Origin: a virus
Virus record (IMG/VR): IMGVR_UViG_3300025162_000052
Location: 3,309 to 67,308 of that record
DNA length: 64,000 nt
Reading direction: 5' to 3' (one strand)
Shown: in pieces, positions 1-53,200 of the stretch
How the letters are laid out: every line of letters begins with the position of its first letter
How positions within the stretch are numbered: position 1 is the first letter of the stretch
The notes under the pieces: model-generated
Databases searched by the model: none
The model's input: only the letters and a program-made list of their open reading frames with translations
What the model was told of the DNA's origin: nothing
Made by a program: the position numbers and the translations under genes

Positions 1-545
1 TCACAATGTTTATAGCCTGCTATGAAAGCATCTGAAATAGTATCTTTTAAATAATACCTTGTTTCTTGATTACAACATGAAATTTCAACATCTTCATATT
101 GTTTAGCAACTTCTTCTAATGTTTCATTAATTGAAGTTTTTTTTGAAATAGGTTTTAGAATAACTGTATCTACATAATGAGTAGTGAAATTCATTAGTTC
201 TAATTCATAAGCATAATCATCTCTTTTTTGAATACTTTTGAATTTATCTATTTTAGTATCACTTGCTCTGTAATAACTATGTATTTCATAAATAAACTCA
301 ACTTCAACTTCTTTACCTACCATATCATCACTTGCATTAGTGATTTGTGGTAGTGGTAATGAGGGATTAGTAGAACAAATGATTTTATCTCTATTAAGAT
401 TAACATCATGTCTTAATAATGTACCTTCACATGAATATACTTTATTTACATAAATATTATTCTCAATTAACCAATCATTTTTTCTTATTTCTGCTTTATC
501 ATCTATTACATAGTAATAGTCTGATATTTTAATTAGTTTCTTCAT
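1..545 (-). CDS. hypothetical phage protein (partial, runs off window start)
   Basis: Not in the ORF track. Open frame from ATG at 545: MKKLIKISDYYYVIDDKAEIRKNDW...ETLEEVAKQY...DAFIAGYKHC, with no stop before position 1. Confidence 0.8.
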   Translation of the reverse strand, partial: MKKLIKISDYYYVIDDKAEIRKNDWLIENNIYVNKVYSCEGTLLRHDVNLNRDKIICSTNPSLPLPQITNASDDMVGKEVEVEFIYEIHSYYRASDTKIDKFKSIQKRDDYAYELELMNFTTHYVDTVILKPISKKTSINETLEEVAKQYEDVEISCCNQETRYYLKDTISDAFIAGYKHC

Positions 546-654
546 ATCTATATATATATTTATAAGTTTATATTCATTTTAACTATAACAATTTAGTACT
601 ATTTCTAGTAGTCTCTTATACTACTTAAAAGTATGTTATTTTATAAGAGATTTT

Positions 655-773
655 GTGTGTTTAAATTTTAACATTAATAATAACTTTTACTAACTGGTAG
701 GCTCTTATCCCTACTAAGATATTTCAGTCATTATTACCAAGCTACTAACTTAATAGTTTTCTATTAAACACAC
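655..773 (-). ncRNA. intergenic multibranch RNA structure
   Basis: Perfect 10-bp inverted repeat GTGTGTTTAA 655-664 / TTAAACACAC 764-773. It encloses an 11-bp stem (with a G-U pair on the minus strand) and a GTAGG/CCTAC hairpin. Confidence 0.45.
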
Positions 774-789
774 TGGGATTTCAACCAAT

Positions 790-996
790 TTATTTACTTT
801 CAGGAACTAAATAAAAATCACTTTCTCTTATTGCTAATAAGACATTATTGTATTTTGTAGTATCTATTTCATGTATATTATTTGTATCCCAAGCATAACT
901 ATCAGCTATTTTAATAGCTTCTTCTTTTGTATTAGCATATACAATACATGCTCCTAAATTATAATTTGTTTGATAACCGAATATAAACGTTTTCAT
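790..996 (-). CDS. small hypothetical protein
   Basis: ORF track 790..1041; the likely start is MKTFIFGY at 996. Contains an IVYANTKEEA motif typical of small phage proteins. Confidence 0.75.
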   Translation of the reverse strand: MKTFIFGYQTNYNLGACIVYANTKEEAIKIADSYAWDTNNIHEIDTTKYNNVLLAIRESDFYLVPESK

Positions 997-1015
997 TGTA
1001 TATAATTTTATAAGG

Positions 1016-1129
1016 TTATTTACTATAATCAATACTACCACTTTTTCCTTTAGTAGTATTAGCTGTCTCTTTAACAGCTTTTTTGATTTTCTTTTTTTGT
1101 ATTAGTTTTGATGTCTCTCGTGTTGGCAT
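1016..1129 (-). CDS. 37-aa basic peptide
   Basis: MPTRETSKLIQKKKIKKAVKETANTTKGKSGSIDYSK*. AT-rich leader; fills the gap between neighbouring genes. Confidence 0.5.
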   Translation of the reverse strand: MPTRETSKLIQKKKIKKAVKETANTTKGKSGSIDYSK

Positions 1130-1159
1130 ATTAATTTAATTATTAATTGTTAATAATAG

Positions 1160-1257
1160 TGGCATATAGTAGAATCGAACTACCTATACATTTAAGTTTT
1201 CCTGTATCCAATGTCATAAAACTATTAGCTATTTAGTTCTCTATTGGAATATATGCC
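1160..1257 (-). ncRNA. tRNA-like element (acceptor stem plus T-arm, non-tRNA core)
   Basis: Minus strand: GGCATAT/ATATGCC 7-bp acceptor stem with discriminator A; T-arm GGTAG-TTCGATT-CTACT. The interior is a long TCCAAT...ATTGGA stem plus a TACA/TGTA hairpin instead of D and anticodon arms. Confidence 0.65.
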
Positions 1258-1267
1258 GAATTAAGCT

Positions 1268-1540
1268 TTATTTTACTATTAAATTATACCATTGTAATTC
1301 TTTTATGTTTTTATTCCAATATTCAGAATCTTTTCTTGTAACTAATCCTATTTTATTATCGTACATATATTCGTATAAAGGAATAGTTATAATTTGTTCT
1401 GTAGATTCTTTTGTTTCTTCTATAAAATAACTATTATAATGTATTATACAAGGAACTCCTTTATATAATCCAATAGTCTTACTGTTTATTGGTGGTAATA
1501 ATTTAGTACATTTTACTAAGTTTTTCTTTAAAAGTCTCAT
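1268..1540 (-). CDS. hypothetical protein
   Basis: ORF track 1268..1576; the likely start is MRLLKK at 1540. Confidence 0.65.
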   Translation of the reverse strand: MRLLKKNLVKCTKLLPPINSKTIGLYKGVPCIIHYNSYFIEETKESTEQIITIPLYEYMYDNKIGLVTRKDSEYWNKNIKELQWYNLIVK

Positions 1541-1571
1541 ATTATATAAATTTAAATTGTTAATATTAAAA

Positions 1572-1932
1572 AACAAACTCTTCTACCTTCTAAGTAAGGT
1601 AGTAGTGATATGAACTGACTTTTCACAACTCTATGGTTGGTATAACATCCAGTTTGCATGCTGCCTTCTCACATGGCATATCACTATCATTTTAAAACAA
1701 CAACTATCTTAGTAGTTTGATTAATTATAAGAATCTCTTCTTGTAAGTCTAATTGACTGTAATTTCTACAGGTTTTCTTACCTAATTATTAATCAAACTT
1801 AGTTGTAAATGTTTAACATTTAGATATTACTCTATCTCTATAGAGTGTACATGGTTGAGAATGGCTAATATAGCTATACTTACATCTCCTTGCTCCATTA
1901 GTAATATCTGTTTTAATTTGAAAGAGTTTGTT
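1572..1932. ncRNA. large (~360 nt) structured non-coding RNA candidate
   Basis: Closing stem 1572-1582/1922-1932 (11 bp). Nested perfect stems: 1583-1589/1596-1602, 1603-1612/1677-1686, 1714-1725/1788-1799, 1822-1831/1900-1909. No ORF in the track. Confidence 0.6.
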
Positions 1933-2049
1933 ATATTATTATTAAACATAGGCGATACTCAGACTATAGAATCATGTGCGCACATTATCTAATTTCTATC
2001 AGTATGTAGTCTGTGTATAACTTTTACCTATGTAAATAGATATTTTATT

Positions 2050-2126
2050 TAACGATATACGGAATCAACCGTTATCCTTACTCTTATTAGGAGTACGAGC
2101 TAAAGTTATATATGCTCCCTATCGTG
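2050..2126 (-). tRNA. degenerate tRNA / tRNA mimic, anticodon AAT (Ile)
   Basis: Cloverleaf on the minus strand: acceptor ACGATA/TATCGT, D-stem GAGC/GCTC, anticodon arm TACTC-CTAATAA-GAGTA, T-arm ACGG-TTGATT-CCGT. It lacks the D-loop GG, the T-loop C56 and an encoded CCA. Confidence 0.6.
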
Positions 2127-2282
2127 TTTATATATCTATTATATAAATTAATATGATAAATTTCAGCTCTCTATATAAGGATTAACCTTTGTTATCTGTT
2201 CACATGAACATTACTTGTGGTAATAACAGCAGCACTTTATTATCATATTATAGTATTAATTATATGCATTGGTAGAGGAATA

Positions 2283-2314
2283 CAAAATTAATAAATTATA
2301 TTTAATCTACCAAA
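2283..2314 (-). promoter_or_regulatory. Bacteroidota primary-sigma promoter (leftward)
   Basis: Minus strand TTTG-N20-TAATTTTG matches the -33/-7 consensus TTTG-N19-21-TAnnTTTG. Confidence 0.65.
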
Positions 2315-2542
2315 TTAGTGGTATAGAAATTAGTAGTAAAGTTAAATTGATAATATGTCCGATAATGGAAATATCGAGATTACCAAATTAATATACTACA
2401 ATTTATAAAATAATGATTAATAGTTAATTAGAAGGACAAATGTATAATGTAGTTTACAATGTAAGTAAGTAAACTTGACATTATAAGTAACACATAATTG
2501 ACATAGATTCTTGGTGATGTAAATAATACTTTACTATGACTG

Positions 2543-2695
2543 CTGTAACTATCTGATACTGCTAAAGAGAGTCCTTCTCTTTATAATTTTTCAACTCTCA
2601 GTGAAGTTTACGTAACGTTGAGAGTTTTCGAATGAAAATGAGAATATTTCGTCTTAATTTTCAAAGACTCGTCAGAGGTTTTAGTTTATATTAGC
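2543..2695 (-). ncRNA. hammerhead ribozyme candidate (type I topology, large stem III insertion)
   Basis: CUGACGA (2675-2669), then stem II GUCUU/AAGAC, then GAAA (2650-2647). Stem III AUAUU pairs with AGUAU, giving an AUC cleavage triplet at 2557-2555. Stem I is AG..UAGUU paired with AACUA..CU. Confidence 0.6.
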
Positions 2696-2958
2696 TATTA
2701 TTAATTAATTTGTTAAAATTCATAGTTGTTTTAATAGTTGGAATAGTAGTGTAGGAGTAATAGTCATTTATTACCTTTATCTCATCACTAAACTTAACCC
2801 TTATATTATATATATATTATCTACTATATATAATATACACCTTCGCCTTATAATTGTGTAACGTTATAACTTAAACCCTTTCAAGATCAAGCCATTACAT
2901 AAATTGTCCAACTATGACAACTCTGTCACTCAATTATTTAGCACTATTTTGTCCAATT

Positions 2959-3026
2959 GCTTAATTAACCCTAACCCTTCCCACTTACAACTGTCTGTAC
3001 TTATTCAAATGTTAGGGTAATTAAGC
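2959..3026. repeat. long inverted repeat / hairpin
   Basis: GCTTAATTAACCCTAAC 2959-2975 pairs with GTTAGGGTAATTAAGC 3011-3026 (one bulge). Confidence 0.6.
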
Positions 3027-3030
3027 TTTT

Positions 3031-3068
3031 AAAAGATACACTCCAACTTATAGTGTTAGAGTGTATCT
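3031..3068 (-). terminator. intrinsic terminator candidate after 3075..3473
   Basis: AGATACACTC/GAGTGTATCT 10-bp stem followed by a short T run on the minus strand, just after the stop codon. Confidence 0.55.
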
Positions 3069-3074
3069 AATTTT

Positions 3075-3473
3075 TTAATGTACTAAAGACAAGTCTTCAA
3101 TTGCCTGTTCGGTAGTTTTGGTAACCGGAGTAGCAATTTCATCAATGTTGAATATTTCAGCTTTACCTAATAAGGTTGAGCCTTGTAATACGTCCATTAC
3201 TGAAGCTTCTGCAATTTTACTCCAATTAATTCTTCTTCCGAATGCATCAGCTTCAGCTTCATTGTAGTTAAGTAAATAAGTTTTACCAACTACTAATCCT
3301 GTACGTTGTGCAATTGTACCACTCAAGAATAAACGATTTGGTGCTTTACCCGAAATCACTTTAAGCATTACATTTTGGGCATTGTTTTTATCTGTAGCAG
3401 AGTGTACTTTACCTGCTTTGTCTGTAAACTGGCTACGATTTTCAACTGTAGCTAATACCATTCCTGTTACCAT
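3075..3473 (-). CDS. hypothetical beta-rich protein, first gene of the leftward unit
   Basis: 132-aa ORF with a protein-like composition, followed by a terminator. Confidence 0.8.
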   Translation of the reverse strand: MVTGMVLATVENRSQFTDKAGKVHSATDKNNAQNVMLKVISGKAPNRLFLSGTIAQRTGLVVGKTYLLNYNEAEADAFGRRINWSKIAEASVMDVLQGSTLLGKAEIFNIDEIATPVTKTTEQAIEDLSLVH

Positions 3474-3918
3474 TGTATTTACGGTTTTAATAATTTATTA
3501 ATATAACAGCGTTATTTCATACGCAGAACTTGTCCATAGTTCATCAGAACTTTAGGTATCTTACACAATTGTTATAGGACTGATAACAACTGCTTGCAGA
3601 ACTACCTACATAAAGTCCGGTAATTCATGGGGATTATTGTACTTAGTAAATATATTACTATATTCACTATTCGCGACCCAGTCCCCTGTTTGGTCGTCAA
3701 TGTTGAGGAGTGGTATTTTGTCTAGGTGGTACTTGCTCTCAATAACATATAATTTTATAAAATTTTAAAAATTAATACTATATCATTACTTACAAAATTT
3801 TATAAAAAATTTTTATAGCTACATTACTACTATCTCATCATATACCTTACCACTATCTACATTACTCTATAACACTCAATACTTTCTCATTTTTATAATT
3901 ATAATTGTAGGAAAATTA

Positions 3919-3950
3919 TTTGGTAGTCTCACTTTTTTTAATTATATTTG
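3919..3950 (+). promoter_or_regulatory. Bacteroidota primary-sigma promoter of the rightward operon
   Basis: TTTG(3919-3922)-N20-TATATTTG(3943-3950). Confidence 0.75.
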
Positions 3951-3989
3951 CACATAATTTAAATGATATGTTTAATTAATTTGTTGAAT

Positions 3990-4172
3990 ATGAGGAAATT
4001 GATTATTACGGTTGGCGTGATTAGTATATTTGTAGTTATGTTGTATGGTGTGGCTATTATGATGATAGATAGGGTTAATACTAGGATAGATCATCGTATA
4101 GATAGTTTACAAAAGAGTATAGATAGTGTATTATACATACGTAAATTAGACAGTTTGACACATGGAAAGTAA
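3990..4172 (+). CDS. small membrane-anchored protein
   Basis: Likely start is MRKL at 3990. N-terminal hydrophobic helix followed by a short coiled coil (IDSLQKSIDS). Confidence 0.6.
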   Translation: MRKLIITVGVISIFVVMLYGVAIMMIDRVNTRIDHRIDSLQKSIDSVLYIRKLDSLTHGK

Positions 4173-4220
4173 ATATTATGTACCGGAAATAGATGAATTT
4201 TGTACTGATATTCCACTAAA

Positions 4221-5009
4221 ATGAAAGGTACATTGAAACATAATAACCCACATAAAAAGTCTATAGAATTAGATAAAGAAGGTAAACATTATATAATAGA
4301 GGGTGTTTCATTAGAAAGAGTTACACATTGGTTAGAGCAATATACTAAACCATTTGAGCCTATGAATACAGCTATAGGAGTACGACATTCTCATAAGACA
4401 AAAGGAGAACCATCATTATCTCCAGATAAGTTAGTCCACTACTGGAACTTAAATAGTAAGCGTAGTAATTCTTACGGTACAGGAACACATTGTTTTGCAG
4501 AAATGTATATAATGGATAATGAAAATACTATACCTGATTTACCACGAGAAAAAGCAGTAGTATTATTCTTACAAGATATATTGAAAGATTATAAAGTAAT
4601 AGGTGTTGAGTTAAGAGTGTATTCTAAAAAGTATAAATTAGCAGGTACTATTGATCTACTATTACAACATTCCAGTACAGGAAAATATTTAATAGTAGAT
4701 TGGAAAACATCTAGTAATATAGATAAGACTTATAATAAGTTAAAAGAACCATTTAAATTATTCCCACAGAGTAAGAGAATGGAGTATGAATTACAACTAG
4801 GGGCTTATAAGTTATTGGGTTTCATTGAGTTACCAAACCATCTGATTCTACGAGTTAAACCTGATGAGTTTGAAACATCAAAACTAGTTATATTGAATGG
4901 TAATGGAACATATTCAATAGAATTAGTAAATCATATTCCTGAACAATTGATACAGGAAGAACTTGAAAAACGCGCTGATTATGAAGAAGAAATTAAAGGA
5001 TTACTATAA
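4221..5009 (+). CDS. PD-(D/E)XK exonuclease (RecB/Cas4-like)
   Basis: Motifs GTGTH, E-L-R-V, LAGTIDLL, IVDWKT and QLGAY. Confidence 0.9.
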   Translation: MKGTLKHNNPHKKSIELDKEGKHYIIEGVSLERVTHWLEQYTKPFEPMNTAIGVRHSHKTKGEPSLSPDKLVHYWNLNSKRSNSYGTGTHCFAEMYIMDNENTIPDLPREKAVVLFLQDILKDYKVIGVELRVYSKKYKLAGTIDLLLQHSSTGKYLIVDWKTSSNIDKTYNKLKEPFKLFPQSKRMEYELQLGAYKLLGFIELPNHLILRVKPDEFETSKLVILNGNGTYSIELVNHIPEQLIQEELEKRADYEEEIKGLL

Positions 5010-5392
5010 TGAGTAAAATATTTGATAACCTATCAATAATAAATAAACCATATACATTTGAAGAGTTTAAAACTGTTATGTATAAGAAATATAATAAACC
5101 ACGTAAATTAGGAGGGTTAATAGATGGTAATGGACAAGTTATTGATATTTTTGAAGTCCCAATTAGATACCCTTTATTATTACGAAATAAAGGAATACTT
5201 GAATTAACTAATGATAATTGGTTAGAGTTATATGAACAGTATTTAAGAGAATGGGATCTACAATATAAAACTGTAGAATATTTAAAATGGAGAGACAGTA
5301 TGTTAGATATACCAGCTATAATACAACCAGAGTATTTAGAAATAGATTTACAATACGAAGATCCAAATAATAGACGTAATGGATTATGGTAA
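5009..5392 (+). CDS. hypothetical protein
   Basis: 127-aa ORF, translationally coupled to the nuclease gene. Confidence 0.7.
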   Translation: MSKIFDNLSIINKPYTFEEFKTVMYKKYNKPRKLGGLIDGNGQVIDIFEVPIRYPLLLRNKGILELTNDNWLELYEQYLREWDLQYKTVEYLKWRDSMLDIPAIIQPEYLEIDLQYEDPNNRRNGLW

Positions 5393-5499
5393 ATGAAATA
5401 GATTTAGAAAAAAAAGAATACGAAGGATGTTTATTTATATTAATAGTAATACTAACTATATCATGTTTAATCGGATTAATATATGGATACTTCTTTTAA
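5386..5499 (+). CDS. 37-aa single-TM peptide
   Basis: MVNEIDLEKKEYEGCLFILIVILTISCLIGLIYGYFF*; overlaps both neighbouring genes. Confidence 0.55.
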   Translation: MVNEIDLEKKEYEGCLFILIVILTISCLIGLIYGYFF

Positions 5500-6535
5500 T
5501 TCTAAATTCCTGGTACTCAGTTATTTACCACGCACTGCTTGTCCATTGTATAGACTAATTAATCCATACTCTAAGTTATCATCAATGGGTGTAGGAACAA
5601 AGATATTAGAGTGTGATGGTGATATAAAGATGAGAAAGAGTGATTTTAATGAGTATAAATATATAGTACTACATACAGGATTTTGTAGTTTAGAGTTAAT
5701 TAAACAACTCCATAGTATAGGTAAAATTGTAATAGTAGATAGTGATGATTATCATATATTGCCAGAATATCATGTATTACATAAGTTTTATAAAACATCC
5801 AATACAGATAGAATAAGTAGTGTACTACGAGCAGCAGATATAATAACAACTACTAATGAGTTTTTAGCGGATAAATTAAAAGAGTATAATAAAAATGTAT
5901 TTGTAATACCTAACTTTATACATCAAAGTGAGTATATGTATTTTCCACAAGTACAGGAAAAGGATTATAGTAAATTAAAAATTGCATATACTGGTGGTAC
6001 TTGTCATCGTCAAGATATAGATGTAATTAAAGGATTAAATAGAGAATTAATGAAAAACAGTATAAACTATGAACTACATCTATATGGTAAAGGAAAAAAT
6101 AAAGAGTTTGACCATTATTTTAATTTACTCACAGATAATGGAAAATATGTAGATAATTTAGTATATCATGATTTTGTGGAAACTAAAGATTATTATTCTA
6201 TATTCAATGATTTTAATATAGTATTAGCACCTTTAAAAATTGATACATTCAATAAATGTAAAAGTAATTTAAAATATTTAGAAGCTACATATTTTAAATG
6301 TATACTAGCTGCAAGTAATATAAGTACATATAGTAAGGACATCAATAATGGGCATAATGGAATATTATTTAGTAATATAAAGGAATTAGTGAGTAAATTA
6401 CAATTAATAGAGCATAGACTTAAATTAGTATTACCAGAAATAATAAATTTAGCTGAAGAACAAATAGAAGAAGAATATAATATTAACCAGATAATGGAAA
6501 ATTTTTTAAAACAACTTAACACATGGAGAGTATAA
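5483..6535 (+). CDS. glycosyltransferase, GT-B fold (GT4-like)
   Basis: Motifs YRL..P, DSDD, ADIITTT..L, VIPNF, YTGG..H..D and PL..FNKCKSNLKYLEA. Confidence 0.85.
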   Translation: MDTSFNSKFLVLSYLPRTACPLYRLINPYSKLSSMGVGTKILECDGDIKMRKSDFNEYKYIVLHTGFCSLELIKQLHSIGKIVIVDSDDYHILPEYHVLHKFYKTSNTDRISSVLRAADIITTTNEFLADKLKEYNKNVFVIPNFIHQSEYMYFPQVQEKDYSKLKIAYTGGTCHRQDIDVIKGLNRELMKNSINYELHLYGKGKNKEFDHYFNLLTDNGKYVDNLVYHDFVETKDYYSIFNDFNIVLAPLKIDTFNKCKSNLKYLEATYFKCILAASNISTYSKDINNGHNGILFSNIKELVSKLQLIEHRLKLVLPEIINLAEEQIEEEYNINQIMENFLKQLNTWRV

Positions 6536-7167
6536 ATCCATATATTGCTATTTATACACACAAGGTAAAGGAATATTGTGACAAAGAGTTTTTTGAACAA
6601 CCTGAATTAAAAAAGTATAAGTATTATATAGTAGATAATACCAATGATAATTTAGAGTATTTTAATAAGTTAAAAACATTATATACTAATAATATAACTC
6701 ATATTGATATACCTATTACACCTAAAGAATCATTATTTAGAAGGAATGTAGTAGAATCAGTAAATTATTTACGTAATGATTTTATTAGTAAACCTGAGTA
6801 TGATAATTTTATTATAATAGAAAGTGATTTAATACTTCCTGATAACGGAATAGAAATGTTATATAATAGTATAAGTAAAACTGTTAATTGGGGAATTATA
6901 GGAGGACTATATTATAAAGGATTTCATGATTATAATAAAATAGGAGTACAGCAAACTCATCATGTATTAAGTGGTTGTTCATTGTATAATAGAAAATTAA
7001 TAGAAGATACTGTATTTAGAATAGATGATAGTAATAAAGGAGCATTTCCAGATGCATGGATGAGTGTAGATGCTGGGGATAAAGGTTATAATTTATATAA
7101 TAATCATGATATTAAATGTAAACATTTACATGCTAAAGATGGACATAGAGGATGGAACAAACTATAA
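6523..7167 (+). CDS. glycosyltransferase, GT-A fold (GT2-like)
   Basis: Motifs IVDN, N.LR, IIIESD (DxD-like), GGLY, GCSL, FPD and a C-terminal C.H. Confidence 0.75.
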   Translation: MESINPYIAIYTHKVKEYCDKEFFEQPELKKYKYYIVDNTNDNLEYFNKLKTLYTNNITHIDIPITPKESLFRRNVVESVNYLRNDFISKPEYDNFIIIESDLILPDNGIEMLYNSISKTVNWGIIGGLYYKGFHDYNKIGVQQTHHVLSGCSLYNRKLIEDTVFRIDDSNKGAFPDAWMSVDAGDKGYNLYNNHDIKCKHLHAKDGHRGWNKL

Positions 7168-7709
7168 TTGAGTATAAACCAACAATATTTAATACACCTA
7201 AAAAGTTAATAAAATTAGGTACTGCGTGGGTAGGATTAGAATCTATAATATATGATATACTTGTTAGGTTTAATATAAATACAAATATTGCATTAGAATT
7301 TGGAGTAGAGTGGGGGTTTTCTACAGCAGCATTTGCAAATTATTTTACTCAAGTAGTAGGTGTAGATACTTTTACAGGAGATATACATAGTGGGGTAAAA
7401 CAATGTCATTTAAATAGTACAAAAGAAAATTTAAAAGATTTTGATAATATAGTACTAATAAAAAGTGATTATAAAGAGTTTATAAAAAATAATAAAAATC
7501 GTTATAATTTAATACATGTAGATATAGTTCATGATTATGAACATACTTATGAATGTGGGTTATGGTCAGTTAATCATAGTGATGTGACATTGTTTCATGA
7601 TACAGTATCTTTTAATGATGTTAATAATGCTGTGAAAGATATATGTAAATTAATTGGTAAAACTTATTATAATTATCCAAAACATTATGGATTGGGAATA
7701 ATAGTATGA
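7152..7709 (+). CDS. class I SAM-dependent methyltransferase (Methyltransf_24-like)
   Basis: Motifs LEFGVEWGFST, GVDTF.GD, LIHVD..HDYE and LFHD. Confidence 0.85.
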   Translation: MEQTIIEYKPTIFNTPKKLIKLGTAWVGLESIIYDILVRFNINTNIALEFGVEWGFSTAAFANYFTQVVGVDTFTGDIHSGVKQCHLNSTKENLKDFDNIVLIKSDYKEFIKNNKNRYNLIHVDIVHDYEHTYECGLWSVNHSDVTLFHDTVSFNDVNNAVKDICKLIGKTYYNYPKHYGLGIIV

Positions 7710-8407
7710 TAGATTTATTTACATTTTGTTATAACGAAGAGTTTATGATACCATTTTTTATAAGGCACTATAGTACTATAGTAGATAGTATAACAGTATA
7801 TGATAATAAAAGTACTGATAGATCATGTGAAATATTAATATACGAATGTCTTAAATATAGAATTCCATTAACTATTATAAAATATGATACGGAAAATCAG
7901 CAAGATGAATTCAAATTAATAGAATTAAAAAGTACAGTGTGGAAAGATTCTAAAGCTGATTATGTAATAGTATGTGATATGGATGAATTTATAGATTTAT
8001 GTAACTTTGAAAATGAATTAGAAAAAAGATATAGTATTTATAAATTAGAAGGGTATCAAATGTATAGTAAATTAGAAGAATTAGAATATTTAAAACCTAT
8101 AACGGAACAAATTAGAACAGGAATAAAAGATACATTATATGATAAATGTATATTATTCAAACCTACTATAAATGAAATAAAATATAGTGTAGGCGCACAC
8201 GTATGTTATAATGATAATATATACAATAGTAATATAAAATTATTACATTATAAAAATATAGGAATTAATAGAACTTTAAAATTATTTAAAGAACGTCAAT
8301 TTAGAACTAATAAAATGTTTGAATTAAATATGGATTGGCATTATAGATTACCACAACAAGAAATAATAGATAAATTTGAAATTGGAACTAAACAACAAAT
8401 AATTTAA
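7706..8407 (+). CDS. glycosyltransferase family 2-like
   Basis: Motifs CYNEE..IPFFIRHY, VYDNKSTD, ADYVIVCDMDEF, GAH and LLHYK. Confidence 0.85.
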   Translation: MIDLFTFCYNEEFMIPFFIRHYSTIVDSITVYDNKSTDRSCEILIYECLKYRIPLTIIKYDTENQQDEFKLIELKSTVWKDSKADYVIVCDMDEFIDLCNFENELEKRYSIYKLEGYQMYSKLEELEYLKPITEQIRTGIKDTLYDKCILFKPTINEIKYSVGAHVCYNDNIYNSNIKLLHYKNIGINRTLKLFKERQFRTNKMFELNMDWHYRLPQQEIIDKFEIGTKQQII

Positions 8408-8408
8408 T

Positions 8409-8579
8409 ATGCCAGTAACAACATATCCTATTAACGGAAAAGGTGAAAATGAATATTGTGTAGATGAAATTATACAATATACAGATGATGTAGATTATCA
8501 AAAAAGTTCACCAACAATATTTGAAACTAATTTTGAACAAAAACTATTTGGAATAAATGAGCAAACTGAAAAAGACTAA
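8409..8579 (+). CDS. small acidic hypothetical protein
   Basis: 56-aa ORF MPVTTYPINGKG...EKD*; starts 1 nt after the upstream stop. Confidence 0.5.
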   Translation: MPVTTYPINGKGENEYCVDEIIQYTDDVDYQKSSPTIFETNFEQKLFGINEQTEKD

Positions 8580-8988
8580 AATAATTGATGAAGATTTAAT
8601 CACAATTGAAAGTGATTTTAAAAAAGCTATAATTAATCAATCTCATAGTTTATATAAACCTAAATATTATAAAGCAGGAGAATTTGATGTAATAGAATTC
8701 TGTAATAGACATGAATTAGGGTTTAGTGAAGGTAATATAATTAAATATATAACACGTGCTGGAAAGAAAGATAGTAAGACTAAATTAGAAGATTTAAATA
8801 AAGCTAAAGAATATTTAGATAGATTAATTAAATGGAATAACACTAATATAATAAGTATTGATTTAGCAAGTAAAGAATATGGAGACACATATAAACAACT
8901 ACAAAAAGAAGTACCTGATATGGATGAAGATTATTATTTAAGAAATACTATAAATATAATTAAAAATAAACGTTTGAATAATGAATGA
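8557..8988 (+). CDS. DUF3310 (T7 gp1.7 nucleotide kinase-like) protein
   Basis: P.YY..G...VI.F......F..GNIIKY..RAGKK.....EDL.KA..YL signature. Confidence 0.85.
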   Translation: MSKLKKTKIIDEDLITIESDFKKAIINQSHSLYKPKYYKAGEFDVIEFCNRHELGFSEGNIIKYITRAGKKDSKTKLEDLNKAKEYLDRLIKWNNTNIISIDLASKEYGDTYKQLQKEVPDMDEDYYLRNTINIIKNKRLNNE

Positions 8989-9256
8989 ACAAAAACAACA
9001 AGAATTACAACTTAAAGTCGAGAAAGCACAAAAAGAAGGATTAATGTTATATCCATTTGATATAGTTACTAATCAAGAGACTGGAGAATATGAGAGAGTA
9101 GTATTATTTGAAGAAGAATTAACAGATGAACATAAACAATATTTACTACAGAACTTAACTCAATTATTTAGAACATTACCAAAAGATGTACAAGATAAGT
9201 TTGTACAAATAGTTAGTAAAACTAAATTAACTGATAAATTAATAATTACAAATTAA
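8981..9256 (+). CDS. hypothetical protein
   Basis: Coupled ORF within the operon. Confidence 0.7.
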   Translation: MNEQKQQELQLKVEKAQKEGLMLYPFDIVTNQETGEYERVVLFEEELTDEHKQYLLQNLTQLFRTLPKDVQDKFVQIVSKTKLTDKLIITN

Positions 9257-44783: not shown

Positions 44784-47291
44784 ATGAGTAGATTTTGGAC
44801 AAGGCGAGATAATCAAGGTACATCACAATATGTACCTTTACCTCTTGATTTTATAGCAGGTAAAATACAACAAGAACAACAAGGATTAGATGTAAGTAGA
44901 GATGCTGTAACTAATGCTATATTAAAGAGTGGGTACATAAATGCACAAACAGGGGATTATAGAAATTTAGATCAAACTCAATTATATTTACAAAAACAAA
45001 AAGAAGTACAACAAAAGAAAGAAGCACTTATAGATGAATTAAATAAAGACCCTTATGCATGGAAAGATGTGTATAATAAAACTAATAGAATGAAACAAGA
45101 ATATTATACTGACCCTGATATAATAAGAATGGAAGATGCATCTAAACATTATGATGCGTTATTAAAAGAACGTAATAAATTAGGTAAAGACTATAGAAAT
45201 TATAGAGACCCTTATACTGAAATGAAAGGAGTTACTACTAATGAAAAGGGAGTTATAACAAATGCAAATTCATTTGAATTTACCGGATTAAAAGGGTACT
45301 CAGATAGACATATAGAAGGTAGTAAAATAATGGAAGGATTTAAAGCTAGTGGAGAGAAAACAGGATATAGTTTTGTAAATCCAATTACCGGAATGATAGA
45401 ACATCATACAGGAGGTAGTGAACAAATAAGTCCACAACAAATTGCACAATTTGTAGGAATTAAACCTTATATTGATGTAGATGAAAAAACAGGTAAATCT
45501 ATTATGAAGTTTAATGTGGATGGAACAATGAATGAAACAGTTAATAATTTTTTAACTAGCAATGGAGGACAAGATTTTATAGATGAAATGGCATTTAATT
45601 ATAAAAAAGCAGGTAAAGAATTAACTAATGATGATATTATAAAAAAAGCCAAATTATTCTTATATGAAATAGGTAGTAAACAAATTTTTAATAAATCAGA
45701 AAATGATTTTACTATGAAAAATGATGCTGTTCATGCAGGAAAAGAAATAGAAAAATTTAAAAGAAGTCTGAACGCTGAAGTTCCAATATATGCCCCAGTA
45801 GATAATACATTAAAAACTCCAGAAGATTATAATAAAAAGAAAGTAGATTTACAAAAAAGTAAAACAGGATTAGTTAGTATAGAAAATACATTAAATACTA
45901 ATTATAATGATATTGGTACAGAAATGGGTGTACAAAATGATAAAGATATTATACCAAATGGAGTAAACATTTATTTAGGTAAAGATAAAATATCTACAAC
46001 TAAAAAATTAGTACAACAAGCTAATCAAGCTATCAATCCTGATAGTAATACAATTGACCTTGAAAAATTAGCTAAAATAAATAGTAATCACCCTATATTA
46101 AAATATAAGAATGATAAAGATAAAATAACTAATATTACACAGGGTATATTATTAGTAAATGGACAACAACAGGAGTATAATAATGTTAGAAACAAAGTTG
46201 TTGAAGTAGAAAATCATATTAATGCTATAGATAATGAGATAAATAAACAATATAATTTAGAAAATGAATATAATAAATTAGAAGATAAAGATAAAAAATT
46301 ATTTAAAACTAAAGATGATTTTATTAATTACATTAAAACAAACGACATTAAATATGCAGATTTAAGTAATCAAGAACAACGTATTGGTAATTATACAACA
46401 TCTGAAGATTATTTAAGACAGTTTGATAAAATTAAAAATAAATATAGTGAAGTTAAAAATGAAATATTAAAATTTAATCCTTCATTAGGTATAGAAGGTA
46501 TGACTTATGAACCCGGTAAAAATAGTACACAAGATAAATATTTAGACCAAATAAATAGATTGTTTAAAGGAAATAAAGATGCTGTAGGTAAATTGAAAGT
46601 ACTTAATAGTTCAGAAAATATAAATGATAAAATAGCTAATGGTGAAATTAAAGACCTAGATGCAAGCAATATTAAATTAGTACCGCATACAGATAATAAT
46701 ACAGGTAAAACTAGTTTTATAATGTATTATAATAATTTAAAACCAGATAAAGATGGTAATTTAATACCTACTAAAGAGTCTAAATCTATTAAAATAGAAG
46801 CAGACGAAAGTACTGTTAAAGCATGGAGAGATGGTATATTACAAGGAGAAACAGAAAATAATGTTAAACATCAAAATGGTTCTATGAGTAGTACAAGACA
46901 TAATCAAGTTAAAAATCAATTAGGTATAGGATTTGCAGAAACTATGTTTAAAGATCCAGAAGTAATTAATGAAGGCACTTTAACTAATCTTAAAATAGGT
47001 GACGCTGTTACTCAACAAGCTGATAATATATATATACCTAATACAGAATTTACTGTGATAGGTGGTAAAGGTACAGGAAAAGATAGATTGTACACTATTA
47101 AAATAACTAATACATCTACAGGGGAAGTATTAGAAAAACAAGCAAAAATATCTGCTATAAAACAAATTATAGGTAGAGTAGGTATAAGAGCAAGTGAACA
47201 TTTAAATAGTAGTAATTTAGAAGTAAATCAAGGACTTACTTTACAAAACAAGATAAAGGAAGAGTTTAATAAAACTGATAAGAATGAGTAA
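44784..47291 (+). CDS. virion cargo protein 2
   Basis: N-terminal SQYVPLP.D motif; helical; lies between cargo 1 and the RNAP. Confidence 0.7.
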   Translation: MSRFWTRRDNQGTSQYVPLPLDFIAGKIQQEQQGLDVSRDAVTNAILKSGYINAQTGDYRNLDQTQLYLQKQKEVQQKKEALIDELNKDPYAWKDVYNKTNRMKQEYYTDPDIIRMEDASKHYDALLKERNKLGKDYRNYRDPYTEMKGVTTNEKGVITNANSFEFTGLKGYSDRHIEGSKIMEGFKASGEKTGYSFVNPITGMIEHHTGGSEQISPQQIAQFVGIKPYIDVDEKTGKSIMKFNVDGTMNETVNNFLTSNGGQDFIDEMAFNYKKAGKELTNDDIIKKAKLFLYEIGSKQIFNKSENDFTMKNDAVHAGKEIEKFKRSLNAEVPIYAPVDNTLKTPEDYNKKKVDLQKSKTGLVSIENTLNTNYNDIGTEMGVQNDKDIIPNGVNIYLGKDKISTTKKLVQQANQAINPDSNTIDLEKLAKINSNHPILKYKNDKDKITNITQGILLVNGQQQEYNNVRNKVVEVENHINAIDNEINKQYNLENEYNKLEDKDKKLFKTKDDFINYIKTNDIKYADLSNQEQRIGNYTTSEDYLRQFDKIKNKYSEVKNEILKFNPSLGIEGMTYEPGKNSTQDKYLDQINRLFKGNKDAVGKLKVLNSSENINDKIANGEIKDLDASNIKLVPHTDNNTGKTSFIMYYNNLKPDKDGNLIPTKESKSIKIEADESTVKAWRDGILQGETENNVKHQNGSMSSTRHNQVKNQLGIGFAETMFKDPEVINEGTLTNLKIGDAVTQQADNIYIPNTEFTVIGGKGTGKDRLYTIKITNTSTGEVLEKQAKISAIKQIIGRVGIRASEHLNSSNLEVNQGLTLQNKIKEEFNKTDKNE

Positions 47292-50200
47292 TACAAATGA
47301 TTTATATAATTATTTAAATCCATCTGATAATTCTGATAAAGAAATAGATGAGTTCTTGAAGCGGGCTATAAAAGCCCCTTCTTCTACTCCATATTTACCA
47401 ACAGGTGTTGAAGGTGAAAGTAGAATATATGAAATACCAGAAAATGTAAAAAACTTTGAAGGTTATGTAGATTTAACTAAAACTAATTTAGGTGATTGGA
47501 ATAATGTATTAGAACAACGAGCTAAGAATCAAAGTTCATGGGAAGTAGCAGGAAATGCTGCGAAACGATTTGGAGCTACTACACTAACTAAATTTGGACA
47601 AGGTGTAGGATTTATAGGTGGATTTTTAGATTGGGCATCTGGAGGATTTGGTATAGATAATATATCTAAGATGACTGATAATGGAGTTAGTAAGATGTTT
47701 GAAGGATTAGAAAACTGGGCAAAAGAACAATTACCTATATACCACACTAAAGCATATACAGAGGGTAATGTACTACAAAAAATGGGTACATTAGGATTTT
47801 GGGCTGATGATGCAGTAGATGGATTTGCATTTATGGCTAGTGCTATGTTACCAGGTGGTATATTAAAAGGTATAGGAACAGGTACTAAATTTGGAGTTAA
47901 AGGATTACAATTAGGTAGTAAAATATCAGAAGGTGTTGAAGGATTATTTAATACTGCTAAACAAGAAGGTAAAATATTTACTAATTTAGTTACTAGAGGT
48001 GCAGCAGGGGATAAAGCATTAGAAGGTAGTAAAGTTTATAACTGGGTTAAAAATGCATTTGGTGCAAATAATATAGACCGTAATTTAATTACTACTTGGA
48101 ACACTATAGCTGAATCTGCTATGGAGGCTAGAGATGCTAAAAGACAGACGTTTGAACAACTAGTTAAACAAACTGGTAAAACTGAAGATGAATTAACTCC
48201 ACAAGAAAAACAAGATTTAAATTTAAGAGCTAGTAAAGTAGCATTAAATACATTCGGGGCTAACTTATTTATAGTAGGGTTAAGTGAACATTTTATGAAT
48301 AAGATGTGGGGTACATTAAAACCTGAAGAAAAAGCTATACAAAAGGAATCTAAAAATATATTAGAACCAGTATTAACACCATCTATTAAAGATTATGGTA
48401 AAATGATAAAACGTAATGTATTAAGTAATATGTTACGTGAAGGTGTATGGGAAGAAAATAGTCAATTAGCAGTAAGTGACTTTTTCAGAGAAAGCGAATT
48501 AGGTAAGGATAATAGAGATTTTGTATCTGGGTCATTTGGTAATATGATTAAAAACTTTACTACTGATGAAGGGCAACAAAATATTATATTAGGAGCAATA
48601 ACAGGTATATTACCTGGAGTATATCATGGTTATCATCAAGTTAAAGCTGATAATAAGTTTAGTAAAAGCATGCGTGATAATTTAGTTTATCATTTTAATA
48701 ATATTAAACAAGGTATTACTTATGCTTATGAAAAAGATGAACAAGGTAAACCTATATTAGCTAAACCTGAAGATATTTATCAAATAGATGGTATTAAATT
48801 AAATCCAACTAAATTAGACGAACTACATAAAGGATTAGCAGATTGGTTTGAGAAAACTGGTATAGTTGCTCAAATAGATCCCAAAGGTGTGGGTAGTCAA
48901 ATTAGAGATTTATTAGATTCTAAAGCAATGTATTATTATTTAAATCAAGATGGTGGGTTAGATGTACTAAAAGGACATGTTAAACTTGCTACAGAACAGA
49001 ATTTAAGAGATGCTGAAAAAAATGGTATATTAACTCCAGAATATGAAAAAGAACAAAGAGAGTTAGCAGATAATAGAATAGCACAAGCTGAAAAGTTTAA
49101 CGCATTAAATAAGCACTTACAACAAGGTAGAATAACTAATATTGATTTAGGTAAAGAGAATGATGAAGTTAGAAGTTTCAGAGAAGTTATGTTAATGAAA
49201 CAATATGATAAACTTACTGATGTTCTAGCATATAGACAATCATCTAATAAACAAGGTGAAGACACTTATCATAATTATGATGGTTCACAGGTACAGGAAC
49301 AAAAGAAAATACAAAGTACTATAAACTTAATTAATCAAGACAAATTAAGTGAAATAGATGATAAATATTTGCAACAAATTGGTATAACTAAACAAGCTTT
49401 AACTAATTTACCTAGTAATGAAATTATATCAGTTAAAGAAAAACTATTAAATAGTCTTAATAAACAAAATGATAATTTAAATAAATCTGTAGAAAAAGAT
49501 AGAACTAGCTTAAAAGATGCTAATAAAGAGTATGAAAGACTTACTAGTGAAAAAGGAATAAAAGAAGAATTTGAACTTTATAAAAAAAGTAAAGTAGAAC
49601 ATGAAGTAAAGGAAAAAGAAATTAAAGATACTATTAAAAAAGATAGAGAGTCTTATAAAAGTAATACAGCATTTGATATATTAGGTAATGATTTATTTAA
49701 TACTGAAGATAATACTAATACTTTATATGGTAAATTTGTAGATGAAAGTAATATACACCCTGACCATAAAGAAAAACATAAAAAAGAATATAGAGTTAAA
49801 GAAGATTTTACAGATAGTTTAAAAAATGCTGAACAAGTTATTAATGATAATATAGAAAAGTTCTATAATAAAGATGGTGAAATAGATAATAATGCTGTAC
49901 AACAATATGCAGCAGAAGCTAATATACTAAAATCTTTATCACCAGAAAATGCAGTTAAAGTTATTAATCAAGTACTACAAGAAGATAAAAGTATAGAAAA
50001 TAAACAACAAGTATTAGATAAAAATAATAAGGTATTAAATACTTTAGGTAAAGATGGAGAAGAACTTTTTCCATTATCTGATGATATTAAAGATATTAAA
50101 GATAAAGATAAAGTTACATTATCAGAACAAGAATCAACTAGATTAGAGAATACTGAAAAATCTATAATAGATAATTTAGGGGTTAATAGAATTAAAGTAG

Positions 50201-53200
50201 TTAATAATACTAATCTAAATGATGTTAAATATTTTGAAACTACTGATAACATAACTGATTTAGTAAAGGAATTTGATAGATTAGGCTTAAAAGATTATTC
50301 ATATTTTAGAGTAGAAAATAGTTCTATAGAAGCTTTAGAAAATAATCTTAAACAATATATAGAACATATACCAGAATCAATAACTAAGTTATTTACTCAA
50401 TTAAAAAAACAATTAGAAGATTTAAAACGTGTACAATCTAAAGGTAAAATAACTAAGTTAATTGCTAATAATTTAAAACGTATAGATGAAAGTTTAGCTA
50501 AATTAAATAAAGAATTAGAAAAACTTACATCTGAAAATACTAATGTTAAAAGTTCGGTATTATATTCAGTACTAGAACGTGGTAATAGAATAGGTGCAGG
50601 AGTACATGAAAAAGTTTCCTATATGCCATTTGCAGAAGGTGAATATCAAGATAAAATTCCTGGACATGATTATAGTGGGGAGGTACTTGATAATTATGCT
50701 AAAATATTAGATGAAAAAGTATGTGAATTTCATGTAAGACCAGATAGTAATCAATCATATAGTCAAGATAATGCTGCTGAAAAATATATTAATAATGAAT
50801 TTGCTAAAGGTAAAGGATTAAAACAAATATTAGTAGAACTTAGAAAAAATGTATTTTTATTAGGAGAGTTAAAAACTGCAATGAATAGTTTAGATTATAC
50901 AGATGTAGATGATATAGGACAACAAGAATTAGCAATGTACGATTTGGTTAATATTAAGTTAGTAGACGAAGATAAAACTAGAAATCCTGATACTATAGAA
51001 TTATGGATACATAAACCACGTGTATTGATATATGAACGAGAGAAATTAAATAAAGAGTTAAAAGATGTAGAAGATGAGCAAGAGATTAAACGTGGAGAAA
51101 ATATACTAGAATCTACTGATGAATCTTTAGATAATCTACGAGAACGGCGAAAAATATTAATAAATAATATACGTAATAATCCTATCATTAAAATTGATAG
51201 AAAAATAGGTGGTAGAATATTTGTAGGAAATACTAAAGTTGGATATGATAAATTTGCAGGTCAATTATCAGGTAAAATAGAGGGTATTTATATAAAGACT
51301 GAATCTGGTAAGTTTGAAGGGATAGATGGAAAAGTATTAGATACTAAAATATCAGATAGTTTTAATGACTACACTTCAAATGGTAATGTAATAGTAGCTG
51401 TAAAAGATGGTGATAATATTAGACTTATTTTATTAAATGTAGATAACATAGGAGAAGAAACTATTCCGTTAATACTACAGATATTACAACATAAAGTTAA
51501 TAATGAACCACATACTCAAGAAATCACAGTAGATGGTCATATTAATGGTAAGTCTATAAAACTAACAGGACAATTAGGTGATGTATTTGATACATTCTTA
51601 AAGTGGAATCCTTATGTTAGATTAGATAGGGATGGTAATGTAGTTAGAGAATTATCTGATAATAAAACACCATACAGATTTGAATTAGGTAATAAAGAAG
51701 GTAAATATGGTATATTATTTGGTAAAGATGGGTTTATTAGTAAAGATGCTATTAATGACTTAACTAATCCTATATATAAAGATCAATTAAATAATTTTAC
51801 TAAATGGCTACAAACTACTAAGAGATATAATATTGATAAAAGTAAGTTAGGTAAAATTAGTAATGTATTATTAAATAAACAGAAACTAGATTATAATAAC
51901 TTTATAACAAACTTCTTATCTACTAAAGTTCAAGTATCTGGTAAAGGAAAATCTGCCAGCGTGTCTAGTTTTCCTACATTAATATTAGACTACGATGGTA
52001 TAAAATATGAGAAAACATTAGAAGTTGTATCTAAATATGAAGATGTATTAGATAAGGAATTAACATTCGAAGAATTTGTTAATAAAACAGGTGTAGATAA
52101 TAAAGCATTAGTAAATGTATTAAAACAGACTATAAAATCTGTACAGGATAAGACTGGTAAAGAGATAAAGATCGTTATAAAAAGAATGGATGATTATGGA
52201 TTCATTACTGATAATACTATCACTCTGTCTACCAATACTTTAGAAAACCATACATCTAGTTCTATATTATCTACTATAGCTCATGAGATATTACATGCTT
52301 ATATAAATAATAATATAACGTCTAAACAACGTATTGAATTAGCACAAGAATTTAGTAATATATTAACTGCTGTAGTTAAGAATAGTATATTAGATGATAA
52401 TACTGTAAATAGTCTATTAATTAATTGGATTACTAGAAGTAGAGAATTACCTAAAAGTGACCCTACTAATAAAGATAGATTAACTATAGAAAATGAAATA
52501 GCAGAATATGTTAGAAAAACTGTTAATAAAAATAATTTTACTGAATATAAGATTAAAAGTATTGCTAAAACATTAGTAATATTATGTAATCAAACTGATG
52601 TAACAGATGAATTAATAACTTATACTAGCACTAATCCTATATTCGCTAAGTTTCTACAAAGTATTAATGTTGAAACTACTAATGAAAAGGGAGTAACTGT
52701 TAGTAAGAGTTTATATGCAAGAATAATGGAACTAATTCATAATATAGTTGATGCTATTATACCTAAGTCATCATTTACTAAAATATACGATATATTAGCT
52801 GAAAATGAGATAGAGAATAAAGAAAAGATAAGTGTTCAATTTGTAACGGAAAAAGTTGATACTAAATCTATAGTTAAAGAAACTGAATTAGAAAAGATTG
52901 ATAGAGAAGAACAACTAAAAAAAATAAATAAAGACTTAGAAAAAGAATTAGATAGAAATGAAGTATTTGGAATAGATAATAGAATTTATTTACCTAATAA
53001 TGAAATAACAGTTTATGATAAAGAAGGAAATAAGCACATTTTAGATGGTAGAGTTGTAGAAAGTGGTGCTGGAATGGGAGTAAAAACAAAATGGATATAT
53101 GATGGTAAATTAGGAGATAGACTAAAAGGAAATATTCCAGACTTATATTATAAACCTATACAAGAAATACAACAAAAATATCAACAAAAAAGAGATGAGT

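Follow-up and report, generated by a model that had tools for sequence, protein, structure and literature searches.

CrAss-like phages rank among the most abundant of all known phages, and their early regions are mostly unannotated. To our knowledge, the transcriptome of the Cellulophaga phage phi14:2 is the only one of a crAss-like phage. According to the preprint (10.1101/2020.03.07.982082), transcription of two long early intergenic regions of phi14:2 exceeds that of most genes from the earliest time point and runs in the same direction as the early genes; the transcripts are stable and remain abundant, and have functions that "remain to be determined". In the genome of this phage (NC_021806, our L014), ARAGORN calls a tmRNA at 4031-4500 on the plus strand, with the tag GSSVQKLAMVA* and an Rfam score of 46 bits (gathering score 47). 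Since it sits in the ORF-free stretch before g006, it is probably one of the two abundant early long noncoding RNAs of the preprint, provided that our mapping of the gene numbers holds.

Other described RNAs bear comparison as well. The pRNA of phi29, a structured RNA encoded by the phage, assembles into a ring through the pairing of complementary loops of different copies. GOLLD and ROOL, roughly 600-800 nt in size, are large, multi-domain, phage-associated RNAs found close to tRNA genes. Both are reported to form homo-oligomeric RNA-only complexes (abstract of PMC12286853). Among the open-access papers on crAss-like phages that were searched, no description of a structured RNA element of the kind presented below turned up.

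The stretch of DNA analysed here (64,000 nt, referred to as the window) comprises bases 3309-67308 of a 67,308-nt virus contig (G000). With a probability of about 0.7, its positions 1572-1932 constitute a member of an undescribed family of large (361-445 nt) structured noncoding RNAs, encoded in the early-gene region of an environmental clade of crAss-like phages. By analogy, its nearest biological counterpart is the early noncoding transcription of phi14:2. The early noncoding RNAs of phi14:2 described in the preprint resemble the element in belonging to a crAss-like phage and in being encoded alongside small early genes, in long regions that lack ORFs and with the orientation of these genes. 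They differ in that their expression has been demonstrated while the element is known here from DNA alone, and a sequence profile of the element detects nothing in positions 1-9000 of phi14:2. A fold of phi14:2 2905-4030 revealed no recognisable comparable closed domain.

The likeness to GOLLD and ROOL is one of size class and build: the element is smaller (361-445 nt) and has no motif in common with them, although a complementarity between one of its loops and one of its bulges could serve a homo-oligomer role such as theirs. Like tmRNA, the element is a multi-domain RNA closed by end pairing in the early region of a crAss-like phage, but it lacks a T-arm, a tRNA-like domain and a tag reading frame and thus is not a tmRNA, in contrast to the RNA found in one ORF-free stretch of phi14:2 by ARAGORN and Rfam. 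One phage, G002, carries both, about 4 kb apart; its tmRNA is of the permuted (two-piece) type and lies ~4 kb downstream of the element (L012 2222-2580, minus strand; called by ARAGORN, Rfam 69.3 bits versus a gathering score of 47). The phi29 pRNA is much smaller, belongs to another phage group and has no sequence or Rfam relation to the element, for which no link to packaging was seen.

PHROG matches to the crAss-type large terminase, portal and major head protein, together with a terminase (TerL) whose best tblastn match is to gut crAss-like phages at 34-35% identity, place the contig in or near Crassvirales, far from any reference. Its DNA is present in eight freshwater runs from three studies, all eight of which are DNA runs. 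The plus strand carries the structural genes, which start at 4221, and the minus strand the small genes before 3473. An ORF-free stretch of ~1.5 kb (about 1577-3075) separates the minus-strand genes 3075-3473 and 1268-1540, and the element takes up its gene-proximal 361 nt. Within 1501-3150 no frame exceeds 81 codons from stop to stop, whether the standard code is applied or TAG and/or TGA are taken as sense codons.

About 2 kb away from the element, a divergent AT-rich region coincides with the cumulative GC-skew minimum near 3800-4000. This intergenic region (3700-4200, 21-26% GC) is a candidate origin or early promoter zone, and its counterpart in L012 (9498-10912) is full of short AT repeats. 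A likely terminator, consisting of a 10-14-bp hairpin and a subsequent T-run (3034-3068), comes immediately behind the stop codon of gene 3075-3473 and is adjoined by a 16-bp hairpin (2959-3026). A scan for sigma-70 promoters was uninformative, with 35 promoter-like sites versus 29.2 expected, and the 8-mer TTAACAAT was rejected as a general promoter, given only six occurrences in the contig.

Table 1. Positions of the candidate RNA and its parts in the window, and of the homologous elements in other phage records
Feature	Position	Strand	Description
Whole element, 361 nt	1572..1932	-	Candidate closed RNA with four-way junction; folds, homologues, full-length nhmmer matches in all four
P1 arm beside the downstream gene (3' arm of the minus-strand RNA)	1572..1582	-	Pairs with 1922-1932, 11 bp
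P1 far-end arm (5' arm of the minus-strand RNA)	1922..1932	-	Perfect 11-bp pairing with 1572-1582
A-run on plus (U-run on minus), directly after P1	1568..1571	-	With the P1 end reads UUGUUUUUU; in 4/4 homologues
P2 hairpin, 7 bp	1583..1602	-	Stem 1583-1589/1596-1602; loop 1590-1595 with CTAAG on plus, 4/4
P3 arm	1603..1686	-	10-bp closing stem 1603-1612/1677-1686; double compensatory changes in 8/10 columns
P4 long arm	1687..1921	-	Contains P5, bulge, P6 and P7; 6 columns with double changes
P5, bulge and P6	1700..1806	-	P5 1700-1706/1800-1806, 7 bp, invariant; P6 1714-1725/1788-1799, 12 bp
One-sided 7-nt bulge between P5 and P6	1707-1713		TCTTAGT on plus; CTTAG invariant
P7 small hairpin	1807..1821	-	1807-1812/1816-1821; kept in 3/4 homologues, not alignable in L012
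Homologue in L016	365-809		445 nt
Homologue in L012	6571-6947		377 nt; same sequence as L013:4435-4811 reversed
Homologue in L015	1443-1837		395 nt

The original prediction had described a branched structure in which an 11-bp terminal stem encloses perfect arms of 7-12 bp, with no ORF inside. Every one of these stems was recovered in place, and the absence of an ORF is borne out, recoded stops included. The closing stem of P4 consists of 8 bp (1692-1699/1909-1916), or of 13 positions (1687-1699/1909-1921) if two T.T mismatches are included. On the plus strand, 1572-1932 folds with a minimum free energy (MFE) of -95.1 kcal/mol, against a mean of -64.6 (sd 5.5) for 100 dinucleotide shuffles (z = -5.55); on the minus strand the MFE is -86.5 kcal/mol (z = -4.12). 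None of the 100 shuffles was as good in either case. The closed domain persists on both strands when the whole ORF-free stretch 1541-3080 is folded.

Taken by itself, this fold is only suggestive. The 67,308-nt contig contains 288 perfect inverted repeats of at least 9 bp within 400 nt. In a scan of 558 windows of 361 nt, restricted to the plus strand and with a grid anchored at the element, to its advantage, 1572-1932 comes second lowest in GC-corrected energy (the lowest belongs to a tandem-repeat gene), and its z of -3.06 is about the extreme to be expected from 558 overlapping windows of an AT-rich genome. What makes the element more than chance is the recurrence of its architecture, with compensatory changes, in three other phages.

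These homologues were found in IMG/VR. A pattern scan for the two P1 arms at a gap of 330-360 nt gave L012 and L013, which hold one and the same 377-nt element. Comparison of the window with L012 revealed a block conserved at 18 of 19 positions, made up of P5, the bulge and the start of P6, and a second scan with this block gave two further elements, L015 (395 nt) and L016 (445 nt). Hence four distinct elements are at hand (the window, L012 = L013, L015 and L016), all of them in crAss-like phages.

Their carriers are distant from the window phage to different degrees. G002, which carries L012, has 35% identity in TerL and 27% in the major capsid protein; G004, which carries L015, is collinear with the window phage from TerL to portal, where the best HSPs reach ~40-50%; G005, which carries L016, has one early gene in common with it (~61-64%). 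Among L012, G004 and G005 themselves, tblastx at 1e-8 gave no match. The interior of the element is only ~55-65% alike among distant phages while its termini are identical, and about 20 nt following P1 are identical between the window and L012.

An nhmmer profile built from the four elements matched each of them over its full length and nothing else, with one copy per record in G000, G004 and G005; in G002, exact matches to the 11-mer are the two P1 arms only. The profile, which sees sequence only, had no match in positions 1-33000 of the closer relative G001 (L007, L010, L011) or in positions 1-9000 of phi14:2. No related loci in viral contigs were obtained with the neighbouring proteins (132-aa protein, 90-aa protein, exonuclease, TerL). 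Against metagenome contigs, alignment of the 132-aa protein gave no related loci and the exonuclease only relatives at 27-42%. With blastn, positions 1100-3600 had only two trivial AT-rich matches among 50,697 phage records, and a search with a 19-mer of the left flank led back to L012 and L013 and to nothing else. The pattern of the conserved block occurred six times in 185,579 genomes of bacteria and archaea, in no case with any other block of the element; all six matches lie in unrelated, mostly coding contexts of higher G+C content. A further noncoding block common to L012 (7313-7336) and L015 (1859-1882), tens to hundreds of bases beyond the element, was not seen in the window.

The secondary structure is common to all four elements and is supported by compensatory changes in independent sequences. 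Each follows the same plan, with P1 to P4 around a four-way junction, an inner P5, the bulge and a P6 of 12-13 bp. The sequence of P1 (11 bp) is invariant except for one change each in L016 and L015, and that of P5 is invariant throughout. P2, P3, P4 and P6 differ in sequence while their place and length are kept; P4 has 13 positions in all four. At the junction, the numbers of unpaired bases are 0, 0, 0, 0 in both the window and L016 and 1-2 in L012 and L015. Shuffle z scores of the four elements on the plus and minus strand are -5.55/-4.12 (window), -5.92/-5.79, -6.13/-5.53 and -3.15/-3.50.

A helix alignment made by hand comprises 67 columns and 251 cells, 243 (96.8%) of which are standard pairs. 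Pair-keeping changes on both sides occur in 18 of the 24 variable helix columns (2 in P2, 8 in P3, 6 in P4 and 2 in P6, the latter being A-T to G-C double changes), counts that lean towards the structure because the alignment was fitted to it by hand and the four sequences amount to two lineages. As a control, the 3' partner was slid by 1-3 positions, whereupon 35-45% of the cells pair and 0-5 columns show double changes. RNAalifold arrives at the same helices without manual input: from the MAFFT pair alignment of the window and L016 it recovered P1-P7 (79 pairs, 10 with double changes), and from that of L012 and L015 it recovered P1, P4, P5 and P6 (55 pairs, 9 double).

No family in Rfam accounts for this structure. 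At the gathering score, Rfam 15 has no match anywhere in the 64-kb window, GOLLD, ROOL, group I and II introns, RNase P, 6S, tmRNA and riboswitches included. At E<=10, positions 1000-3700 give only Hammerhead_3 (16.5 bits, 2645-2690, E 6.3), which is outside the element, and SAM-SAH (14.2 bits, 1891-1929, E 7.3), which overlaps its end; the elements of L012, L015 and L016 have no match at E<=1. Neither ARAGORN with tmRNA search nor Rfam finds a tmRNA in the window contig, and this test has power because the same programs detect tmRNAs in L012 and phi14:2. Likewise, Rfam models of self-cleaving ribozymes (hammerhead, twister, hairpin and others) have no match inside 1572-1932, and the search works in this phage group, as a twister-P1-like match is seen in G001. 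The proposal of a large structured noncoding RNA without recognised family is therefore supported: the comparison with Rfam that it called for (group I intron, RNase P, GOLLD, ROOL) gave no match at the gathering score, and compensatory changes, whose lack was among the signs that would have spoken against it, are plentiful (the 18 double-change columns of the hand alignment of four sequences). Its assignment to the general class of GOLLD and ROOL, made without claiming a specific match, is apt as a likeness in kind only, since neither Rfam model matches at E<=10.

The strand from which the element is read is less evident from the helices themselves. Nearly all pairs are Watson-Crick (239 of 251 cells), so both strands fold. 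Among the cells with transition mismatches, four are wobble pairs on the plus strand only, five on the minus strand only (one of them common to L012 and L015) and three are broken on both; a split of 4 versus 5 has no strand bias, which is also what a two-strand or DNA-level constraint would give. The MFE favours the plus strand in the window (-95.1 vs -86.5) and the minus strand in L015 (plus -71.9 vs minus -82.1).

Several other features agree on the minus strand. The neighbouring ORFs lie on this strand, in the sense of the element, at all four loci. In L015, a tRNA (Rfam 41.9 bits, gathering score 29) starts 9 nt after P1 on the same minus strand, and since 9 nt cannot accommodate a promoter, transcription of this tRNA must pass through the element. 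In all four elements, P1 is followed on the minus strand by the U-run. A makes up 47-50% of the unpaired bases on the minus strand, again in 4/4, a richness in A that is usual for the loops of structured RNAs; on the plus strand, the unpaired bases are 43% U, 22% C and 5% G. For L012 and L015, RNAalifold recovers the P3 stem only on the minus strand, through G.U pairs, and consequently the four-way junction of this pair is recovered only there. Considering the neighbouring ORFs, the tRNA of L015, the U-run, the A-rich loops and the G.U pairs of P3, the element is most likely read from the minus strand, as RNA. The original prediction had read it on the plus strand, which the flanking genes, the L015 tRNA, the U-run and the loop composition make the less likely choice. 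In the early regions of related phages other RNA genes (tRNAs, tmRNAs, a twister-like motif) are found on the same strand.

An alternative that we consider unlikely is that the selected structure is one of folded single-stranded DNA, serving as a replication or priming signal or, in folded form, as the entry site or promoter of the injected virion RNA polymerase, with the P1 arms as an inverted-repeat protein site. The high share of Watson-Crick cells (239/251), the even distribution of wobble-only cells (4 plus, 5 minus) and the almost equal folding of both strands would suit such a function, as would an exact inverted repeat, formed by the P1 arms, that is conserved between phages at 27-35% protein identity. 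According to the phi14:2 preprint (10.1101/2020.03.07.982082), the virion polymerase transcribed denatured phage DNA and the early transcripts had no common upstream motif. The proximity of ~2 kb to the GC-skew-minimum region near 3800-4000 fits as well, but the element is not at the minimum itself and instead sits among tRNA, tmRNA and ribozyme-like genes. Moreover, arms that are 64-300 nt apart cannot extrude as cruciforms from duplex DNA, the strand asymmetry of the loops (A-rich on minus, 4/4) is typical of RNA, and the P3 stem of L012 and L015 forms on one strand only.

DNA could also be the relevant level if the element were a small, non-autonomous, MITE-like mobile element, bounded by terminal inverted repeats of 11 bp, that has moved from one crAss-like phage to another. 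With miniature inverted-repeat elements it has in common the short exact terminal repeats, a length of a few hundred bases, AT-richness and a strong fold. Identical termini in very distant phages around an interior that is ~55-65% alike, flanking genes that are different in every genome, and neighbouring proteins of L012, G004 and G005 without mutual tblastx match at 1e-8 agree with this idea, which we nevertheless regard as very unlikely: the element is single-copy (one per record in G000, G004 and G005, with only the two arms matching the 11-mer in G002), no target-site duplication was seen by eye in its flanks, none of the 185,579 bacterial and archaeal genomes has a copy (0/6 pattern matches), it is oriented alike with respect to its neighbouring genes in 4/4, and its interior stems are kept by compensatory changes that transposition does not require. 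Similarly small is the chance that the element is a cis-acting leader (riboswitch-like or attenuator) of the downstream ORF 1268..1540, an option raised alongside the original prediction. Its end lies 31 nt before the ATG at 1540, P1 and the U-run are terminator-like, and the window and L012 agree fully in the ~20 nt that follow P1. Yet each of the four homologues has something else downstream (a 90-aa ORF; a 719-aa ORF without Pfam family; a tRNA 9 nt away; 218 nt of noncoding DNA before a 41-aa ORF), which makes a leader function unlikely, and 361-445 nt is far above the size of known leaders. Least credible of all is a functionless chance cluster of inverted repeats in AT-rich spacer. The high background of 288 repeats in 67 kb and the unexceptional genome-wide z would allow for it, but not the same architecture in three other phages with 18 double-change columns, recovered independently by RNAalifold, in homologues whose 55-75% identity and different contexts argue against their being recent copies of one sequence.

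In the preferred reading, a structured RNA encoded on the minus strand, the molecule would be transcribed together with, or between, small early genes and tRNA genes. The pairing of its ends in P1, followed by the U-run, would close it and probably stabilises or ends the transcript, or leaves a protected 3' end. As a terminator stem, however, P1 would be weak, being AU-rich (3 G-C of 11 pairs); it closes a 340-nt multiloop, the terminator scan called none here, and in L015 the tRNA follows 9 nt later. RNase P cleavage at that tRNA would trim the candidate RNA. By analogy with the early transcripts of phi14:2, a stable, compact, trans-acting early RNA with a scaffold or decoy role can be envisaged.

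P1 to P4 would meet in the four-way junction with 0-2 unpaired bases. The P2 loop (CTAAG) and the P5/P6 bulge (CTTAG, both on the plus strand) are reverse complements in 4/4 and the only invariant unpaired blocks seen outside the helices; base counts give a chance of ~0.2% per register for complementarity of two given 5-mers of such composition. The loop may thus be placed for contact with the bulge, within one molecule or between copies. P2 has a length of 3-7 bp in the four elements and the bulge lies ~20 bp from the junction along P4-P5. Since P2 is much shorter than this distance, pairing between two copies seems no less likely than pairing inside a single one. Junction and complementarity together would point to a rigid three-dimensional structure or to an assembly of several copies, and the invariant sequences of P1 and P5 suggest a sequence-specific partner.

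One tentative and rather unlikely extension of the RNA reading is a self-assembling RNA in which P2 is too short to reach the bulge of its own molecule and its loop pairs with the bulge of another copy, such that a chained or closed RNA-only multimer is formed early in infection. If so, the multimer would be a smaller, unrelated counterpart of the ROOL and GOLLD assemblies and could act as a scaffold or as a decoy for host factors.

For early noncoding transcription of the phi14:2 type, the candidate would be the first unit that is defined, conserved and foldable. Its boundaries are clear, it is kept in deeply divergent phages, and it lends itself to direct tests: a length of 361-445 nt suits probing and cryo-EM, the closing stem is invariant, and the proposed loop-bulge contact is open to experiment. 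The long "empty" stretches of crAss-like genomes would then hold RNA genes, namely the candidate element, tRNA-like units, tmRNAs and ribozyme-like motifs, which matters for annotation and for the understanding of host takeover.

Further RNA-like features were seen in these stretches. In G001, the twister-P1-like match (54.9 bits, against a gathering score of 67.2; E 1.7e-10) lies at L011 2240-2304 on the plus strand, in an early stretch without ORFs, and there is a weak tRNA match at 4127-4191. G001 also has an ORF-free stretch of 1.1 kb at 3118-4230. In the window, positions 1157-1258 (minus strand) form a tRNA-like cloverleaf whose acceptor stem has 7 bp and whose T-arm looks canonical, but with a 40-nt hairpin in place of the D-arm and a 12-nt "anticodon" loop; its fold z is only -1.8, ARAGORN makes no call and Rfam has no match at E<=10. 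ARAGORN with lowered threshold called a tRNA-Ile with a 1562-nt intron at 1161-2817, whose acceptor would be an AT repeat; it was rejected for this reason and since 7 of 9 calls at that threshold are intron-bearing and mostly in coding DNA. The Hammerhead_3 match at 2645-2690 (minus strand) contains a type III core (CUGANGA, a 5-bp stem II, GAAA), while stems I and III were not found by eye.

A third exact copy of the P1 11-mer, in minus-strand sense, is located on the contig 454 nt before the window start (G000:C1:2854-2864). It closely follows the stop codon of a small minus-strand ORF and has no partner arm nearby; we estimate that ~0.1 copies would be expected by chance. Also outside the window, G000:C1:1666-2748 (minus strand) is a 360-aa ORF of 15-nt tandem repeats, pentapeptide-repeat-like by eye, and represents the most self-pairing stretch of the genome. 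The window itself further contains, at 47284-61311 on the plus strand, a single ORF of 4675 aa.
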